Shown here piece by piece: positions 7,615 to 43,526 of a stretch of 64,000 nucleotides of DNA. A program made the position numbers and the translations under genes. Origin of the DNA: Candidatus Sungiibacteriota bacterium (GTDB lineage: Bacteria; Patescibacteriota; Minisyncoccia; Sungbacterales; HO2-52-23); NCBI GenBank assembly GCA_016180435.1, contig JACPBG010000001.1:8358-72357 (forward strand). Direction: 5' to 3'. Positions within the stretch are counted from its first letter, which is position 1, and every line of letters begins with the position of its first letter. Below the pieces are notes generated by a model, which was not told the origin of the DNA, made no database searches, and saw only the letters and a program-made list of their open reading frames with translations.

Positions 7615-8625
7615 ATGACTAAATACGACTTCATTGGAATTGGGGATACGGCGGTGGATGCATTTATACGCCTGAAAGAGGCGTCGGTGCATTGCACTTT
7701 GGATCACGAAAAATGCGAGATTTGCCTTAAATTCGCGGATAAGATTCCGTATGAAGATGTTTATAGGATTCCGGCAGTGGGCAATGCGGCCAATGCCTCG
7801 GTCAGTGCCGCGCGTTTGGGACTTAAATCCGCCTTTGTTTCAAATGTGGGAGGGGATTATTACGGCGGCGAGTGCAAACGCGTGCTTGAGCAGGAAGGCG
7901 TGGCATCCGAGTTTGTTCGGGAACATGCCGGACAAAAGACCAATTATCACTATGTCTTATGGTACGAAGATGACCGGACGATTTTGATTAAGCACGAGGA
8001 ATATAAATATAAATTACCCGATATTGGAGAGCCAAAATGGGTTTACCTTTCTTCCACGGCAGAAAATTCTTTGGAATTTCACGGCGAGATTGAAAAATAT
8101 TTAAATTTGCATCAAAGCATCAAATTGGCTTTCCAGCCCGGCACTTATCAGATGCGTTTCGGAAAAGAAAAATTGGCGGAATTTTATCGCAGAGCCGAAG
8201 TGTTTTTTTGCAACAAAGAAGAATCCCAAAGGATTCTAAAAACCACGGAGGATGATATAAAAAAATTATTAAAAGCGATGGCGGATCTGGGACCGAAGAT
8301 CGTGGTTATAACCGACGGGAAAAAGGGAGCGTATGCATATGATGGTTTGACTTCGCTCACCACAGGTGGAGAATTTTGGTTTATGCCGCCCTATCCGGAT
8401 CCAAAGCCGCCTTTGGAACGTACCGGAGCCGGAGATGCGTTTTCATCCACTTTTACTGCGGCTTTGGCGTTGGACTTGGATGTTCCGACTGCCCTTCGCT
8501 GGGGTCCTATAAATTCAATGTCGGTGGTACAATATGTTGGGGCGCGAGAGGGACTTTTGACGCGTGAGAAATTGGAGGAATATTTGAAAAATGCGCCGAA
8601 AGATTATGTGCCGAGGAAAATATAG
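7615..8625 (+). CDS. PfkB-family carbohydrate kinase (ribokinase-like)
   Basis: N-terminal GxGD..VD motif, GNAANASVSAARLG, C-terminal anion-hole motif GAGDAF. Confidence 0.8.
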   Translation: MTKYDFIGIGDTAVDAFIRLKEASVHCTLDHEKCEICLKFADKIPYEDVYRIPAVGNAANASVSAARLGLKSAFVSNVGGDYYGGECKRVLEQEGVASEFVREHAGQKTNYHYVLWYEDDRTILIKHEEYKYKLPDIGEPKWVYLSSTAENSLEFHGEIEKYLNLHQSIKLAFQPGTYQMRFGKEKLAEFYRRAEVFFCNKEESQRILKTTEDDIKKLLKAMADLGPKIVVITDGKKGAYAYDGLTSLTTGGEFWFMPPYPDPKPPLERTGAGDAFSSTFTAALALDLDVPTALRWGPINSMSVVQYVGAREGLLTREKLEEYLKNAPKDYVPRKI

Positions 8626-20308: not shown

Positions 20309-20545
20309 ATGAGACATTCTTACACATTTAAAACTATTATACGTAGAGGACAGGATGGATACTGGATTGCTTCTGTCCCGGCTTTGCCTGGCTGTCATAC
20401 CCAAGCCAAGACCTATGAAGAATTGAGAAAAAGGATTAAAGAGGCGATTGGACTTTGTTTAGAAGCGGCAAAAGAAGATCATAGTTACCGTCTGACCTCT
20501 CAACCCGTTTTCATAGGGATGGAGGATGTGGCGGTTAGGGTATGA
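20309..20545 (+). CDS. hicB: HicB-family antitoxin
   Basis: GYWIASVPALPGCHTQAKTYEELRKRIKEAIGLCLE, the HicB N-terminal fold motif. Confidence 0.7.
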   Translation: MRHSYTFKTIIRRGQDGYWIASVPALPGCHTQAKTYEELRKRIKEAIGLCLEAAKEDHSYRLTSQPVFIGMEDVAVRV

Positions 20546-20769
20546 GTCGTCTCCCAATTCTTAGAGCGCGTGAAGTTATCCGAGCGCTGGAACGCGCCGG
20601 ATTTGTTAGTATAAGACAGAAAGGCAGTCATATTTTCCTTAGAAATCCTGTAACAAAACGCACTACAGTGGTGCCTATTCATGAACGAGAAGATATAGAT
20701 CGTGATTTTCTTGCTGAAATATTAACTGACGCTGGCATCGGTCAAGAAGAATTCCGCAAACTTATTTGA
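20542..20769 (+). CDS. hicA: HicA-family mRNA interferase toxin
   Basis: EVIRALERAGFVSIRQKGSHIFLRNP...VVPIH; 4-bp overlap with hicB. Confidence 0.7.
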   Translation: MSRLPILRAREVIRALERAGFVSIRQKGSHIFLRNPVTKRTTVVPIHEREDIDRDFLAEILTDAGIGQEEFRKLI

Positions 20770-21695: not shown

Positions 21696-22184
21696 TTGCG
21701 CTTTCATAAAATTATGATATTAAATCTGGCTTTAGGAATAATATTTTTGGGAAGTACTGCCGCGCTTTGGTATCTTGTTTCTAAAAGAATTCCTGTGCTT
21801 GTGGCGATCCCGGACGATGTAATTGCTAAACGCCTTGAGGAGGACTCGGCGCGGATTCGCGTGTTTCTCCTGCGTCTAAAATCGTTTTATACTGAAGGGC
21901 GAATTAAGGATTTTTTTTGGGGCATTGTCGCAAAGATTTTGCACCGCTCGCATATTATTTTGATGCGCGTTGATAATAGGACGGTTTCTCTCCTTAAGCG
22001 CGTTCGCGGAAATGGCGGAAGTCAAGGCGCGTCTAATGGCATTACAGTAGGGGAGGATGAATTGCAAAAATCATCCGTATCGGCGGTTGCTTCATTGCCG
22101 GATCCCATGTCGCATAAATCTCTTAAAATTGAGGAGGTACGTCCTCGCAAAAATGATGCTCGAGAAGAAGTACGACTTGTATGA
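21696..22184 (+). CDS. Hypothetical protein with an N-terminal TM helix
   Basis: ORF only; no recognisable motif. Confidence 0.3.
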   Translation: MRFHKIMILNLALGIIFLGSTAALWYLVSKRIPVLVAIPDDVIAKRLEEDSARIRVFLLRLKSFYTEGRIKDFFWGIVAKILHRSHIILMRVDNRTVSLLKRVRGNGGSQGASNGITVGEDELQKSSVSAVASLPDPMSHKSLKIEEVRPRKNDAREEVRLV

Positions 22185-22201
22185 TATAATTGATGATGGA
22201 C

Positions 22202-22379
22202 GCCGCCTTAGCTTAGTGGTAAAGCAGTGGTTTCTTGCCCTCCCACTTTTTATGCCAGAGTAGCTCAGTGGTAGAGCAGCGGTTTTGTAAACCGTTGGTC
22301 AGGGGTTCAAATCCTCTCTCTGGCTAAAAGTGGGAGGGTGAATAAACCACGTACGCAGGTTCGATTCCGGCAGGCGGCT
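22202..22379 (+). tRNA. tRNA-Lys(CUU) gene interrupted in the anticodon loop by a nested tRNA-Thr plus a 13-bp inverted repeat, about 107 nt in total. 5' half about 22202-22237, 3' half about 22344-22379
   Basis: Acceptor GCCGCCT/AGGCGGC (7/7); U8A9; D-arm GCTT-AGTGGTA-AAGC; anticodon stem GTGGT/ACCAC with loop TTCTT|..|AA; T-arm GCAGG-TTCGATT-CCGGC (one A.G mismatch); folded by hand. Confidence 0.6.
22254..22325 (+). tRNA. tRNA-Thr(UGU), intact, lying inside the tRNA-Lys anticodon loop
   Basis: Acceptor GCCAGAG/CTCTGGC; D-arm GCTC-AGTGGTA-GAGC; anticodon arm GCGGT-TTTGTAA-ACCGT; T-arm AGGGG-TTCAAAT-CCTCT; 72 nt. Confidence 0.8.
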
Positions 22380-22415
22380 CTTGACGCAAAGTTAATCTAA
22401 GGATAAGCTTAGAGC

Positions 22416-22634
22416 ATGAGCAATATCATCGGATTAAAAGAGCTTCGGGAAAATGTTGAGAATTACGTCTCCGAAATAAAGCGGGGAAAGTCATTTATTG
22501 TATTAAGGCGCTCCTTGCCCGTCTTTAAAATTTCTCCTCCGGATGAGGATGCGGAACTCTGGGAACAGGTGGCTGATTTTACTAAAATAAAGAAGGGCGG
22601 GGTTGAGATCAAAAATTTGCTTTCTCGTCTTTAA
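22416..22634 (+). CDS. Phd/YefM-family antitoxin
   Basis: IIGLKELRENVENYVSEIKRGKSFIVLRRSLPVFKI: Phd/YefM N-terminal pattern. Confidence 0.6.
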   Translation: MSNIIGLKELRENVENYVSEIKRGKSFIVLRRSLPVFKISPPDEDAELWEQVADFTKIKKGGVEIKNLLSRL

Positions 22635-22639
22635 ACTTT

Positions 22640-22882
22640 GTGGACAAAATTGAAAAGGCGCTTCAAAAGTTTAGCGCCTGGGAGCGCGTAGTGGTTAAGC
22701 AGTTGCTGGAAAAGTTACAATCAGGATCTATCGCAAGCCTTAATATCAAGAAACTCAAGGGGAGAGAGGATATTTTTCGCGTTCGCAAAGGCGATATCCG
22801 CATAATATACCGTCTGGATAAAAAGATGGGCATATTCGTTTTAGCAATTGAACGGCGCAAAGAAAATACTTATAAATTATAG
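22640..22882 (+). CDS. RelE/ParE-family toxin (GTG start overlapping the antitoxin stop)
   Basis: GDIRIIYRLDKKMGIFVLAIERRKENTY, the RelE/ParE C-terminal signature. Confidence 0.6.
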   Translation: MDKIEKALQKFSAWERVVVKQLLEKLQSGSIASLNIKKLKGREDIFRVRKGDIRIIYRLDKKMGIFVLAIERRKENTYKL

Positions 22883-22901
22883 GAGATAGATAATGACTAT
22901 A

Positions 22902-22985
22902 GGGTGTGTCGCATAGCGGCAATTGCTCGTGGCTGTAAACCACGCGTCCTAACGGACTACGGAGGTTCGAGTCCTCCCGCACCCA
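22902..22985 (+). tRNA. tRNA-Tyr(GUA), long variable arm
   Basis: Acceptor GGGTGTG/CGCACCC; anticodon arm CGTGG-CTGTAAA-CCACG; variable stem GTCC-TAAC-GGAC; T-arm GGAGG-TTCGAGT-CCTCC. Confidence 0.8.
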
Positions 22986-23000
22986 AAAATTAAATTATTT

Positions 23001-23591
23001 ATGAACGAATTTGTATTGTTCGCCAATCCTTGGTGGGTAAATCTTCTTATCGCCGTTCCAATTGCGACATATTATATATGGCGCAAGGAGGGACTGGCAA
23101 TTTCAAAATGGACTCTGGTTGCCTCCGGTTTGTTTGGAGTCGGATTTGGTTTTGTTGAGGCGTCGGTGGTTATATATCTTCGTGCCGCCGTAGGGCTTCT
23201 TCCCGGATATGGCGGAACACTTTCGGATGTTGCCAATCTTTCAGCAGATATTTACCAGCAAGCGCAAATTTTGGGCGAGTTGCCGAAAAGTTTGCTTGCG
23301 GTGGAACTATTTAGGGAAGCCGCCACTATGATTATGTTGATCAGTGTGGCGTTACTGGCTGTTAAATCCAGGCGCGAGCGTTGGGCCATATTTCTTTGGA
23401 CATTCGCCACTTGGGATATTTTCTATTATGTTGGTCTTTGGGCTACGGTTCGCTGGCCGTCTGCGCTTACGACTCCGGATGTTCTTTTTCTAATTCCGGT
23501 TCCGTGGTTTTCCCAGGTATGGTTTCCGATATTAGTAAGCGTAATGTCTATGGTTGCGGTTGCCGTAGCACGAAAGGATGCGAAGATATGA
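23001..23591 (+). CDS. Hypothetical integral membrane protein (about 5 TM helices)
   Basis: Hydrophobic helices only. Confidence 0.35.
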   Translation: MNEFVLFANPWWVNLLIAVPIATYYIWRKEGLAISKWTLVASGLFGVGFGFVEASVVIYLRAAVGLLPGYGGTLSDVANLSADIYQQAQILGELPKSLLAVELFREAATMIMLISVALLAVKSRRERWAIFLWTFATWDIFYYVGLWATVRWPSALTTPDVLFLIPVPWFSQVWFPILVSVMSMVAVAVARKDAKI

Positions 23592-35563: not shown

Positions 35564-36739
35564 TTAAATCCGCTCCACTTCTGCGCGTTTTATCGCGCCG
35601 CTAATCAGCGTTGTTAACTTGAGCTTCTGCTCAAGTTTTTTTATTTCCGCAAGTTTTCCTTCCGCAGTCGGATGCGCAGGAATAAAAAGCGTACAGCAAT
35701 CTTCCTGCGGTTTTATGGAAATGGCATATGTCCCGATTTTTTTGGCGCGCTCGATTATTTCTTCTTTGTCCATGCCAATCAGGGGACGTAATATTGGAAT
35801 TTTGGTGACTTCTTCAATTATGGCAAGGTTTCTTGCGGTTTGGGATCCGACCTGTCCCAATGCTTCGCCGGTTACCAATGTCTCGCAGTGTTCTTTTTGC
35901 GCAATGCGTTCAGCAATTTTCATCATCGCACGGCGATATAAGAGTATGCGATATTTAGGGTCTGCATGCAATTTTATTTTTAACTGTATACCGGAAAACG
36001 GCATAAAATATATTTTAAGCGAGGGCTGGAAGCGCAAAAATTCCCGCGCAAGCTCACGCACTTTTTCCACGCTTTTTTGCGATACCAGGGGAAAGCTATG
36101 GAAGTGAAGCCATATATTTGCGGCGCCGCGCCGCGCGATCATGTGCGACGCGACCGGCGAATCAATGCCTCCGGATATCAGAGTTAAAACCCCGCCTTGC
36201 GTACCCGCCGGAAGCCCGCCCGCGCCTTTTTCTTTTTTGAAATAAAGAAACCACCCGGCATTTCGGCGCTCAATAAAAATTTCTTTGTCAGGATCATCAA
36301 GATTTACGCGGCGTTTTATATGCGGCGCGATATTCTCAATTATATTCTCGCGGCTTTCGCTATCGTTTCCGGATTTTCCAATTCGCATGGCAAATGTTTC
36401 TTTTTCGCCTATCCAATCGCGCCAATGCGCTTTGATAAATTTTTGGATATCCGACAATTCTCTATTCCGGAAAAAATATGCCTCGCTAAACCAGGAGATG
36501 CCGAATAGTCCTTTGAGGACATCTCCTGTTTTTTCGGCATCTGTTGATTCAACGAAAATCCGTTCGCGCAGCAGATGGACTTTATATGTGATGCCGGCAT
36601 TTTTAAACAACTGCACGGCATTATCAATCAGGCGTTTGCGCATGATGCTTTCTACCCCGCGGGATTTCAAAAACATCTCGCCAAAGGCAAGCAGGAATCC
36701 GTGTTTTAGGACATCAGTATTTACCATACTAATCAGCAT
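35564..36739 (-). CDS. thiI: tRNA 4-thiouridine(8) synthase ThiI (THUMP plus PP-loop)
   Basis: PP-loop LISGGIDSPVASHM; THUMP-like N-terminus. Confidence 0.8.
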   Translation of the reverse strand: MLISMVNTDVLKHGFLLAFGEMFLKSRGVESIMRKRLIDNAVQLFKNAGITYKVHLLRERIFVESTDAEKTGDVLKGLFGISWFSEAYFFRNRELSDIQKFIKAHWRDWIGEKETFAMRIGKSGNDSESRENIIENIAPHIKRRVNLDDPDKEIFIERRNAGWFLYFKKEKGAGGLPAGTQGGVLTLISGGIDSPVASHMIARRGAANIWLHFHSFPLVSQKSVEKVRELAREFLRFQPSLKIYFMPFSGIQLKIKLHADPKYRILLYRRAMMKIAERIAQKEHCETLVTGEALGQVGSQTARNLAIIEEVTKIPILRPLIGMDKEEIIERAKKIGTYAISIKPQEDCCTLFIPAHPTAEGKLAEIKKLEQKLKLTTLISGAIKRAEVERI

Positions 36740-37970: not shown

Positions 37971-38531
37971 ATGCCGATCCGGTTTAAATTGGAAAAGAAT
38001 AAAACACTAATGTTTCAAGAGGGTCCATGTGTCTTGCTGGAAGATACCGAGGGGCGCGGAATTTGGATGCCGGTGTTCATAGGACGATCAGAATTTGATT
38101 ATATCATATGGGCATTAAATGGGTTTGCCCCGCCGAGGCCTGTTATACACGACCTGTTTAAAACGGTCGTAGAGAAATTGGGAGGGGCGGTAGAAAAAGT
38201 TTTGGTGACCAAACTTGAGAATAACACTTTTTTTTCAGAACTGCACTTGCGAAAACCGGATGGGAGCGTGGTGCAAATTGATTCACGGACCAGCGATGCC
38301 ATTGCGCTTGCCCTGCGATTTGGATGTCCAATTTTGGTGGAGGAGGAAGTAGTCAATAATTTGTTGGAGGTTTCGGTGACAGAAACTAAAACCGGTGTTA
38401 CGCTGGCATATAACTCACAGGCGCCGGGCAATCTCGACTTGGAGTCCTTGCCAATGCACGACAAGGACGCAATGAAAAAATATTTTAAGCAAATCGGAAA
38501 TAAATCTCCTGATAAAGACAAACTATCATAA
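37971..38531 (+). CDS. Bifunctional nuclease domain (DUF151/BFN) protein
   Basis: GRGIWMPVFIG..E...I..A...RP..HDL...V: DUF151 pattern. Confidence 0.6.
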   Translation: MPIRFKLEKNKTLMFQEGPCVLLEDTEGRGIWMPVFIGRSEFDYIIWALNGFAPPRPVIHDLFKTVVEKLGGAVEKVLVTKLENNTFFSELHLRKPDGSVVQIDSRTSDAIALALRFGCPILVEEEVVNNLLEVSVTETKTGVTLAYNSQAPGNLDLESLPMHDKDAMKKYFKQIGNKSPDKDKLS

Positions 38532-42389: not shown

Positions 42390-43526
42390 ATGATTGAATT
42401 TGAAATTCTTAAAAAATCTAGGATAAGCGATGCGCGGCTTGGAATTTTGAAAACGCAGCACGGAGAAGTTGAAACCCCGGCCTTTGTTCCGGTGGCAAGC
42501 CAGGCCTCAGTCAAAACATTAACCAGCCGCGAAGCGGAAGATGCGGGATGCCGGATTTTAATTGCCAATACATTTTTATTGCATGACAGGCCGGGTGAGG
42601 GGATTGTGAAGCGTGCCGGAGGACTGCATAATTTTATGCAATGGCCCCGGCCTTTGATGACTGATTCGGGCGGGTTTCAGGTTTTCAGTTTGGGATTTGG
42701 CAAGGATTTGGGAATTGGTAAAATTGCGGCGCGTAATACATCCCCGCATATTAAAAAAGGCGTAAACCCTGCGGCTGTTAAAATAGCGGATGACGGCGCG
42801 TATTTTAAGTCGCCTTTTGACGGTAAGACCATATTTTTGGGACCCCAAGAGTCCATGAAAATTCAAGGCGATCTCGGGGCAGACATTATTTTTGCGTTTG
42901 ACGAGTGTACTCCGCCCGGGGTGGATCGCGCCTACATGGAACGGTCGTTAAAACGCACACACGCTTGGGCAAAAATATGTTTGGAGGAGAAAAAAGAAAA
43001 TCAGGCGATTTTTGGCATAACTCAAGGTTCGAAATTTAGGGATTTGCGCGAGAAAAGTGCGAAGTTCATCAGCTCTTTGCCATTTGATGGATTCGGCATA
43101 GGCGGGGATTTAGGCGAAAATAAACATATGACCGAAAAAATACTTTTTTGGACCATGAGGCATCTTAATCCCCGAAAACCAAGGCATCTTTTGGGAATCG
43201 GGCATTTGGACGATATAGCGCGCATAATCCGTCGCGGAATTGATCTTTTTGATTGCACGGCGCCAACGCATTATGCGAGGAATGGCGTGGCATTCACAAG
43301 CGCCGGAAAAATGGATATGCGTAAATCCGCATTTCTTAAGGATAAAAAACCGCTTGATTTGAAATGCAAATGCGAGGTGTGCGGCACATATTCTCGTTCA
43401 TATCTTTCGCATTTGGTACGCTCCGGAGAAATTACCGGTCTGCGTCATTTGACATTCCACAACCTTTTTTATTTCAACGCGTTTGTCACGGGAATCAGAA
43501 AAAAAATAAAAAACGGAACATTTTGA
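42390..43526 (+). CDS. tgt: Queuine tRNA-ribosyltransferase
   Basis: LMTDSGGFQVFSLG; zinc site CKCEVCGTYSRSYLSHL. Confidence 0.85.
   Translation: MIEFEILKKSRISDARLGILKTQHGEVETPAFVPVASQASVKTLTSREAEDAGCRILIANTFLLHDRPGEGIVKRAGGLHNFMQWPRPLMTDSGGFQVFSLGFGKDLGIGKIAARNTSPHIKKGVNPAAVKIADDGAYFKSPFDGKTIFLGPQESMKIQGDLGADIIFAFDECTPPGVDRAYMERSLKRTHAWAKICLEEKKENQAIFGITQGSKFRDLREKSAKFISSLPFDGFGIGGDLGENKHMTEKILFWTMRHLNPRKPRHLLGIGHLDDIARIIRRGIDLFDCTAPTHYARNGVAFTSAGKMDMRKSAFLKDKKPLDLKCKCEVCGTYSRSYLSHLVRSGEITGLRHLTFHNLFYFNAFVTGIRKKIKNGTF

Follow-up and report, generated by a model that had tools for sequence, protein, structure and literature searches.

A tRNA-Thr gene of Candidatus Sungbacteria that was probably split by an inverted-repeat cassette carrying a complete, foreign-type tRNA-Thr

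Intervening sequences (IVSs) are insertions in bacterial 23S and 16S rRNA genes. RNase III cuts them out and the rRNA is not rejoined; they are common in reduced genomes and are thought to have spread horizontally. Short non-intron insertions have been described at the tips or bases of stem-loops in rRNA genes of the Candidate Phyla Radiation (PMC11270868), and group I introns are found in the anticodon loops of tRNA genes of Patescibacteria, including at positions 35/36 (PMC13011429). Here we describe a tRNA locus at positions 22202-22379 of a 64-kb stretch of DNA (the window, by which we mean the whole stretch) from a metagenome-assembled genome (MAG) of Candidatus Sungbacteria (Parcubacteria/Patescibacteria), in which a complete tRNA-Thr(UGU) gene (22254-22325) lies between perfect 13-bp inverted repeats within the two halves of a second tRNA gene. 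This nesting had been pointed out in an initial annotation of the same DNA and is borne out by ARAGORN, Rfam and independent assemblies. The second gene is probably a resident tRNA-Thr(UGU) that was split in its anticodon loop by an inverted-repeat cassette carrying, as its cargo, a complete tRNA-Thr(UGU) of foreign type. The initial annotation knew of no bacterial precedent and, in good agreement, our literature searches found no description of nested, intron-encoded or replacement tRNA cassettes in bacteria, the nearest match being the group I introns of PMC13011429.

We refer to the window cassette as E1 and to three parallel cases in metagenome contigs as E2 (the UGU case of contigs L020, L021 and L023), E3 (the GGU case of L020 and L021) and E4 (the case of L024). 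Among described systems, the rRNA IVSs appear to be the closest analogues. Both kinds of insertion are about 100-200 bp long and sporadic in occurrence, their complementary ends pair into a long stem, and they are found at the tip or base of a stem-loop in the gene of a structured RNA; in our cases the stems are 11-16 bp long, and the insertion sites are the anticodon loop (the window and E2), the base of the anticodon stem (E3) and the D and T loops (L024). The two differ in that the host here is a tRNA, which is non-functional in two pieces, and in that the cassette brings a complete replacement; an involvement of RNase III at our locus is a proposal. With the group I introns the cassette shares the phylum, the anticodon-loop target and the ARAGORN mis-calls with wrong anticodons such as Arg(GCG), but it lacks a ribozyme core, its 107-nt insert is mostly tRNA (72 nt) and its exons cannot be restored. 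Group I introns have a catalytic core, P3-P9, and are usually at least 200 nt long. No match to the group I family RF00028 was found in 22150-22430 or in L021 and L024 even at E <= 10, Rfam reporting tRNAs only, and although U36 precedes the insert as the group I end rule demands (U before the 5' splice site, G at the end), the insert ends in U or A. The opinion of the initial annotation that an insert of this size, carrying a tRNA, is too small for a group I intron can stand.

All parts of the nested unit lie on the forward strand. The 5' part of the outer gene (22202-22233) comprises the acceptor 5' strand, the D arm, the anticodon-stem 5' strand and U32 U33, and is followed by the junction bases CTTG (22234-22237), so that from 22202 the sequence reads GCCGCCT-TA-GCTT-AGTGGTA-AAGC-A-GTGGT-TTCTTG. 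The left arm of the inverted repeat, CCCTCCCACTTTT (22238-22250), is separated by the spacer TAT (22251-22253) from G1 of the inner tRNA; the initial annotation gave this spacer as AT, one T short, and the inner tRNA copies in L021 are likewise preceded by (T)AT. The inner tRNA-Thr(UGU) (22254-22325), presumably the working gene, forms a full cloverleaf, is called Thr(tgt) by ARAGORN and scores 72.6 bits against Rfam RF00005 (E = 6e-14; gathering threshold 29). The right arm, AAAAGTGGGAGGG (22326-22338), is the perfect complement of the left one and is followed by TGAA (22339-22342), which comparison with L024 and L022/L025 suggests is an outer extension of the arm. The 3' part of the outer gene (22343-22379) then supplies (U36)A37A38, the anticodon-stem 3' strand, a 4-nt variable loop, the T arm, the acceptor 3' strand and U73, the sequence after the right arm being TGAATAA and then ACCAC-GTAC-GCAGG-TTCGATT-CCGGC-AGGCGGC-T. 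In total the cassette measures about 105-111 bp, and its 13-bp terminal inverted repeat can be extended to about 16-17 bp.

The nested arrangement is genuine, and in this population it is fixed. Independent Logan assemblies from at least five sequencing runs, as well as the NCBI MAG, contain the identical 178-nt arrangement assembled end to end, and the nested form is present in all contigs that carry the window's exact antitoxin gene and extend upstream. Some suspicion of an assembly artefact, or of a one-off local rearrangement, could be raised by Logan contigs that break or branch inside both tRNAs (L034, L035, L036, L087 and L089), repeated tRNA sequence being apt to confuse k-mer graphs; yet the agreement of independent runs with the MAG over the whole 178 nt, together with parallel cases in JGI and ENA assemblies from other sites, leaves this explanation with practically no weight.

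The repeat is well beyond chance. ARAGORN predicted 123 tRNA genes in the fetched loci, and we compared those with full flanks, using flanks of 30-40 nt: exact complementarity between the two flanks did not exceed 7-8 nt for ordinary tRNAs, against 13 nt for the arm-flanked tRNAs of E1, E2 and E4. Complementarity of the arms is 13/13 bp in the window and reaches 17-19 bp in L024 and L025.

What the outer gene was can be read from relatives that lack the insert. A search with the neighbouring EF-Ts gene led to L001, Parcubacteria GW2011_GWA2_45_30 (87% EF-Ts identity), and the adjacent hypothetical protein led to L037, a longer contig of the same lineage. These closest relatives are syntenic with the window (tsf, the hypothetical gene, the tRNA, the ParE pair and tRNA-Tyr; the downstream DNA of L037 is 89% identical) and carry at the corresponding place an uninterrupted tRNA (L001 7100-7171; L037 3492-3563) with the loop TTTGTAA: GCCGCCT-TA-GCTT-AGTGGCA-AAGC-A-GTGGT-TTTGTAA-ACCAC-GTAC-GCGGG-TCCGATT-CCTGC-AGGCGGC-T. 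ARAGORN calls it tRNA-Thr(tgt), Rfam scores it at 63.4 bits, and its identity with the outer halves in the window is 94%, the acceptor stem, D arm and anticodon stem being the same; the outer 5' part differs from it at 1 of 32 positions, and the 3' part differs from L037 at three. Judged by this synteny and similarity, the outer gene is the resident tRNA-Thr(UGU), orthologous to the relatives' uninterrupted gene. The U55C-type T loop of L037 might be taken to indicate decay, a reading that we rejected because the plain tRNA-Thr(UGU) of L093 has the same TCCGA-type loop; the C in place of the near-universal U55 in TCCGATT (L037 3492-3563) and TCCGAAT (L093 1574-1646), from two Parcubacteria lineages, is apparently a lineage trait.

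The initial annotation had read the outer halves as a canonical tRNA-Lys(CUU) interrupted by about 107 nt. ARAGORN at its default settings reports the inner gene alone, and with introns and overlaps allowed it does add a tRNA-Lys(ctt) with a 107-nt intron; the stems of the outer gene also read as had been described, save for a central A:G mismatch in the T stem GCAGG/CCGGC. The lysine identity fails on comparison: the orthologue has the loop TTTGTAA and is a tRNA-Thr(UGU), CUU arises only across the junction, and the discriminator is U rather than the A73 of lysine. In L037 the empty site reads GTGGTTT-TG-TAAACCAC, and the window reads GTGGTTT-CTTG, then arm, TAT, tRNA and arm, then TGAA-TAAACCAC; because the empty site lacks these extra bases, the 'CUU' anticodon is a product of the insertion-junction bases, CTTG creating it together with U32 U33. 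A 37/38 splice would moreover give G37, as opposed to the A37 of a lysine-type body, and the outer body has G1-C72, C2-G71 and the discriminator U73 (22379), which are threonine-type features and serve threonyl-tRNA synthetase as identity elements. Among the options that the initial annotation had offered, a pseudogene into which a tRNA module had inserted was right in kind, except that the gene disrupted is tRNA-Thr(UGU) and not tRNA-Lys.

The other options offered were a split tRNA and an archaeal-style spliced intron. On such an account the outer RNA would be a genuine interrupted tRNA, spliced to tRNA-Lys(CUU) or tRNA-Thr by an archaeal-type endonuclease and ligase or by some other bacterial route, with the inner tRNA as an intron passenger. 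The predicted fold of the 178-nt RNA is a double cloverleaf (-84.7 kcal/mol, z = -7.1 against shuffles), in which both the minimum-energy and the centroid structure have a nearly continuous helix of 7 bp (GUGGUUU/AAACCAC), a 1x2 internal loop and 16 bp made up of the arms and G.U pairs; U22236 and G22237 are able to lengthen the repeat stem by two such pairs. A bulge-helix-bulge, that is, two 3-nt bulges 4 bp apart, is absent from the predicted folds of the window and of E3, where the helix is continuous. By hand one can draw a 3-nt bulge UAA with a 3-bp UUC/GAA helix beside the anticodon stem, but only as a relaxed imitation of the motif (3 bp plus U.U, with a 2-nt bulge).

A GC-rich helix by the anticodon stem that would hold the two halves together, and a position near 37/38, are likenesses both to archaeal bulge-helix-bulge introns and to the split tRNAs of Nanoarchaeum, in which complementary sequences beside the halves play this part. 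The halves of Nanoarchaeum tRNAs, however, are encoded by separate genes and joined in trans, whereas here they lie 107 nt apart on one strand behind one promoter, and the locus differs from the archaeal introns in its bacterial genome, its missing canonical motif and the parallel outer genes, which can never be completed. Further in favour of splicing, 53 of 54 spliced outer constructs were accepted as tRNAs by ARAGORN; judged by threshold stepping and cloverleaf folding, the spliced outer sequence of the window passes ARAGORN and still folds as a cloverleaf, and exact excision at the L021 junction (TTTG...TAA) would restore UGU. The window junction, on the other hand, cannot yield UGU from what in relatives is a tRNA-Thr(UGU), and a tRNA with CUU would combine U73 and a body of threonine type with the mismatched T stem; the outer gene of E2 has lost the 3' strand of its anticodon stem and the greater part of its variable loop, that of E3 lacks the whole anticodon arm, and no group I or other ribozyme matches. 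An EndA-like endonuclease or RtcB ligase, for which the initial annotation had proposed to look, is not encoded among the 63 selected open reading frames (ORFs) of the window, 55 of which, including all those not already identified by inspection, were scanned against Pfam. We regard a genuinely interrupted tRNA as very improbable.

The cargo differs from its host gene. The inner tRNA is 86% identical to the cargo of L021 and 83% identical to the resident tRNA-Thr(UGU) of the L039 lineage (Paceibacterota), but only 69-75% identical to host-type genes. These identities indicate that the cargo is an intact tRNA of foreign type and not a copy of the host gene. Cargo tRNAs overall are 83-96% identical to resident genes of other lineages, and they are conserved, with compensatory stem changes between cassettes. 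At the upper end, the GGU cargo of L021 (E3) shares 96% identity with the tRNA-Thr(GGU) that is the ordinary resident in the L053, L090 and L093 lineages, but only 73% with its own host gene; it has the unusual T loop TGCAAAT in common with the former. As a side observation, tRNA-Thr(GGU) genes that combine such a T loop (TGCAAAT or TGCAAGT) with the short D loop AGGCAGCA (L053 2377-2450, L090 297-370, L093 1887-1960 and L021 2894-2968) include ordinary residents of several Paceibacterota lineages.

The initial annotation had suggested looking for the same nesting in related genomes, and it does recur in other Patescibacteria (E2, E3 and E4), although the closest relatives, L001 and L037, have the gene uninterrupted. 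A single scan of metagenome contigs for both window arms at a spacing of 60-90 nt returned six loci; the predominance of tRNA-Thr among them may reflect the query. The identical 13-mer CCCTCCCACTTTT bounds cassettes in L020/L021/L023 and in L024, plus a tRNA-less repeat in L022/L025, and the parallel cases come from JGI and ENA assemblies of other sites. As sequence comparison shows, at least three other Patescibacteria lineages have cassettes with the same or covarying arms in their cognate tRNA genes. Empty sites exist in relatives (L037/L001, L049-52, L023 and L083/84).

E2 is found in three strains of one AT-rich lineage (L020, L021 and L023), where a different tRNA-Thr(UGU) between the same 13-mers has entered another resident tRNA-Thr(UGU) after TTTG in the anticodon loop. 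The locus is orthologous to that of the window (tsf, hypothetical gene, Thr, Tyr, Thr(GGU), rpmG and Trp), and in L049-52, the lineage nearest E2, the gene at that site is uninterrupted and has the same T arm. A single ancient insertion common to the window and L021 is nevertheless unlikely, each host gene having uninterrupted orthologues in closer relatives. No tRNA can form from the outer gene of E2, because the host 3' remnant has lost its strand of the anticodon stem and the greater part of the variable loop. Across the three strains, variation affects 4 columns in 27 nt of this remnant (background 2.3%; P = 0.003) and none in the 103 nt of cargo and arms; on this pattern the outer halves decay, as they do in the window, where the T stem has its A:G mismatch.

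Some features of E2 and E3 could instead be taken to mean that the double-cloverleaf precursor is useful, whether by protecting the tRNA-Thr or timing its release or by yielding stable tRNA halves, and that the outer halves and stem have been kept for this reason. The outer 5' halves of E2 are unchanged (0 of 34 columns variable), the outer halves of E3 are identical to the intact allele, and in E3 the repeat helix stands exactly at the former anticodon stem, preserving the cloverleaf outline. Yet the 3' remnants decay, close relatives manage without the arrangement, and the conservation of the 5' halves is drawn from very few sites and may reflect young age or a promoter-proximal position. 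We hold an exapted scaffold of this sort to be quite unlikely.

E3 is a second cassette type and lies 400 nt downstream of E2, so that L020 and L021 have two cassettes within 400 nt. Its host is the resident tRNA-Thr(GGU), nested at L021 2817-3017 and, on the reverse strand, at L020 2380-2580, and uninterrupted at L023 13166-13240. The whole anticodon arm (positions 27-43) is replaced by TCCCGCTCTTTAT, a 26-nt tRNA 5' fragment, TCCCCCACTTTAT, a complete tRNA-Thr(GGU) and CCTAATAAAAGAGCGGGA, and the predicted fold shows the outer cloverleaf with the repeat helix as its anticodon arm and the inner cloverleaf as a cap. The 26-nt fragment, read in this way, shows that an earlier cargo-type copy had already been struck at this position, so that the units are nested like Russian dolls. 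In a 3.7-kb comparison L020 and L023 are sisters, 56 single-nucleotide polymorphism (SNP) columns singling out L021 as against 15 and 14 for the other two; the GGU insert, however, is present in L021 and L020 and absent from L023, while the SNPs closest to it, at 56 nt upstream and at 141 nt downstream, match the strain tree. The GGU insert has therefore been gained, lost or converted on a tract of less than about 340 nt. Across these three consensus contigs, such a distribution is suggestive of a mobile or homing-type element.

E4 (L024 and contigs L077-L082) belongs to a GC-rich genome in which the relatives of the neighbouring protein are mostly Patescibacteria. Arms extended to AAAAGTGGGAGGGTGAA enclose a tRNA-Arg(CCG) that interrupts a second tRNA-Arg copy at its D loop; this second copy also has a T-loop insertion, and some but not all strains have a 19-nt palindrome inserted in its anticodon loop (GGAGTTTATCCGCCGCAGGCGG region; absent from L080 and L082). 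More tRNA-Arg fragments and a degenerate arm surround it, making up a multi-level wreck (e.g. L077 2060-2520), and a relative has a plain tRNA-Arg(CCG) at the site. Across cassettes the arms follow a consensus of about TTCA-CCCyCsCACTTTT. AAAAGTGGGAGGGTGAA is the right end both in the window and in L024, where a degenerate second copy, AAAAGTGGCGGGGTGAA, is also found, and the arms of E3, TCCCGCTCTTT/AAAGAGCGGGA, differ from CCCACTTT/AAAGTGGG by two compensated changes.

The same arms occur around cargo that is not a tRNA. In L025 (2150-2257) and L022 (1-108) they are lengthened to 19 bp (TTCATCCCCTCCCACTTTT) around 67 nt of AT-rich sequence, the repeat ending in GGGAGGGGATGAA, paired with TTCATCCCCTCCC, and lying in an intergenic region between divergent genes. 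A perfect DnaA-box-like TTATCCACA stands just outside this repeat, and a free-standing gene of the 23S_rRNA_IVP family lies 2.6 kb off; we considered the repeat as part of a replication origin because of the adjoining TTATCCACA box, for which the neighbouring genes give no support.

For the window cassette we propose the following course of events. The cassette would have no promoter of its own and would be transcribed from the host promoter, with the outer 5' half as a leader: an extended -10 element, TGaTATAAT (22182-22190, forward strand), lies 11 nt upstream of the outer G1 and is conserved in L001/L037, and a strict two-hexamer scan of 22000-23100 found no second promoter on this strand. 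Because this presumed host promoter is the sole promoter-like element upstream of the nested unit, the cargo is probably co-transcribed with the outer 5' half. The arms would pair into a stem that prevents wrong pairing between the inner cloverleaf and the homologous outer halves, and the inner tRNA would be freed by RNase P and RNase Z, possibly with help from RNase III, since the stem and the acceptor helix stacked on it exceed 20 bp. The outer halves would be discarded as waste. Mobile now or in the recent past, the cassette would resemble an IVS or a miniature inverted-repeat transposable element (MITE) that persists in an essential tRNA gene by bringing the replacement. That only cognate-tRNA cassettes are seen would be explained by a tRNA cut in the anticodon loop being non-functional in pieces.

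How the cassette inserts is a question with two candidate answers: a trans-acting nuclease or transposase may read the arms, or tRNA loops may be sites of break repair or template switching. Arm conservation and the copy whose cargo is not a tRNA speak for the former, with a MITE-like element mobilised in trans. The likeness to MITEs consists in a length of about 100 bp, terminal inverted repeats, no coding capacity, presence/absence among strains and the related intergenic copy with other cargo (L022/L025); the cassette departs from them in its missing target-site duplication, its single copy in the window and the want of an autonomous partner in the loci scanned, and a functional tRNA cargo and targeting of the cognate gene are features of the cassette and not of MITEs. 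Integrative elements that target tRNA genes (islands with tyrosine integrases and prophages) also often use the anticodon loop, and the tRNA sequence they bring keeps the function; they are kilobases long, however, encode an integrase, leave a direct repeat of the 3' part only and regenerate a hybrid gene, whereas in our case the inverted repeats enclose an entire, independent tRNA, the host gene stays broken and no integrase was found in the window.

Under the second answer the locus would be a repair scar: transformed foreign tRNA genes would have been caught at breaks in the cognate gene by homology- or microhomology-based repair, and the arms would derive from fold-back or template-switch synthesis. 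Host bases are indeed lost to differing extents, from 2-4 nt in the window and about 5 nt of the D loop in L024 through about 10 nt in E2 to the entire arm in E3, and the insert positions differ as well, with no target duplication; cargo and host have the anticodon loop in common, and in E3 the whole 22-nt anticodon arm, as a source of microhomology; the polymorphic 19-nt palindromic micro-insertion in the pseudo-anticodon loop of the L024 lineage demonstrates palindrome-creating mutation there; and no mobility gene was found in the window. De novo fold-back, on the other hand, would not yield the same 13-mer CCCTCCCACTTTT in three unrelated lineages with different cargos, the same arms surround non-tRNA cargo in L022/L025, and an identical E3 insert occurs in two strain backgrounds. 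Taken together, these points make a repair scar unlikely.

Several observations weigh against a mobile cassette that split and replaced the resident gene. Host bases are lost in differing amounts, target duplications are wanting and the insertions centre on loops, all of which would also fit break repair or template switching. No consistent target-site duplication was found at four junction pairs, the window arms being flanked by 'TG' only, which is equally the G.U extension of the stem. The proteins examined in the window include no transposase, integrase, homing endonuclease or reverse transcriptase, and the window holds one cassette copy, the near matches to the arm at 7842 (inside a PfkB kinase gene), 38174 and 49863 being due to chance. 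Viral contigs, scanned with both arms strictly, with the 17-mer right end and with relaxed arms, contained no cassette; such matches as did occur were rejected as chance hits in Shine-Dalgarno-like sites, in coding sequence and in an unrelated tRNA T arm. In a sample of rpmG neighbourhoods from six Parcubacteria/Paceibacterota lineages, nested tRNAs were seen in the L021 lineage only: the arrangement is sporadic and rare. Cognate-only targeting could possibly stem from selection for complementation, from homology guidance or from search bias, and expression and processing, as proposed above, are inferred from sequence and predicted fold.

A further point concerns the contig L036, which at 1368-1467 is 100% identical to the window up to GTGGTTT (22233), including all 32 positions of the outer 5' part; beyond this point it completes an intact tRNA-Thr(UGU) of the outer type, which scores 73.8 bits and whose 3' half is different, and another tRNA start (GCCCGAGTAGTTCAACGGCAGAAC...) follows 2 nt later. 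We rejected L036 as an empty allele, the contigs carrying the window's exact antitoxin all being nested. It is most simply read as a graph path into a second tRNA-Thr locus, or alternatively as a strain variant, the former being probable because the shared 5' half is exactly 32 nt long and Logan uses k = 31. If that second locus is a paralogue in the same genome, there would be a second UGU gene and the cargo need not be essential, which again counts against a replacement of the resident gene.

With these reservations we still consider it likely that a cassette carrying a complete, foreign-type tRNA-Thr(UGU) split the resident gene. A wider proposal, which we put forward tentatively and to which we give somewhat less than even credence, is that the cassettes form an undescribed class of selfish elements in Patescibacteria: miniature cassettes that home into tRNA genes, evade counter-selection by providing a working copy of the tRNA they destroy and so replace essential tRNA genes horizontally between lineages. 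On this proposal the arm consensus would serve as the recognition site of a trans-acting nuclease or recombinase and, as the cargo recreates the target, repeated hits would give the Russian-doll wrecks of L021 and L024. If true, foreign versions overwrite essential single-copy tRNA genes in highly reduced genomes by means of a tiny insertion that complements itself, a route for the horizontal replacement of core translation components that is undescribed as far as our literature searches found, and the phenomenon of intervening sequences reaches from rRNA to tRNA genes. Tools that search for tRNAs in intron mode report such loci as intron-containing tRNA-Lys(CUU) or tRNA-Arg(GCG), and these calls may contaminate censuses of bacterial tRNA introns and of the tRNA repertoires of Patescibacteria. 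With the conserved arm sequence as a simple handle, whole databases could be surveyed and the enzyme responsible for moving or processing the cassette could be sought.

Elsewhere in the window, the ORF at 37971-38531 has a bifunctional nuclease domain (PF02577), and the tRNA-modification genes TGT (42390-43526) and ThiI (35564-36739, minus strand) lie near it; neither the ORF nor these genes have an evident link to the cassette. The order Thr-Tyr-Thr-rpmG-Trp is broken in L096-L103, where rpmG has no upstream tRNA-Thr and the tRNA-Tyr is encoded about 1.3 kb away on the other strand.

The nested unit borders a toxin-antitoxin islet, as the initial annotation had observed. Outside the cassette, between tRNA-Thr and tRNA-Tyr, lies a Phd-like antitoxin and ParE-family toxin pair (22416-22882, forward strand; Pfam ParE_toxin). 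L037 has the same Phd/ParE pair after its uninterrupted tRNA and, because this relative is free of the insert, the toxin-antitoxin genes are unrelated to it. A HicB/HicA pair (20309-20769) sits between rpsB and tsf, an interval that in L037 is without HicB/HicA. Downstream of the ParE pair follows a tRNA-Tyr(GUA) with a long variable arm (22902-22985, forward strand; ARAGORN, Rfam 51.9 bits), part of a conserved bacterial Thr-Tyr tRNA neighbourhood; this class II tRNA-Tyr and the gene order rpsB, tsf, Thr, Tyr are both signs of a bacterial genome.

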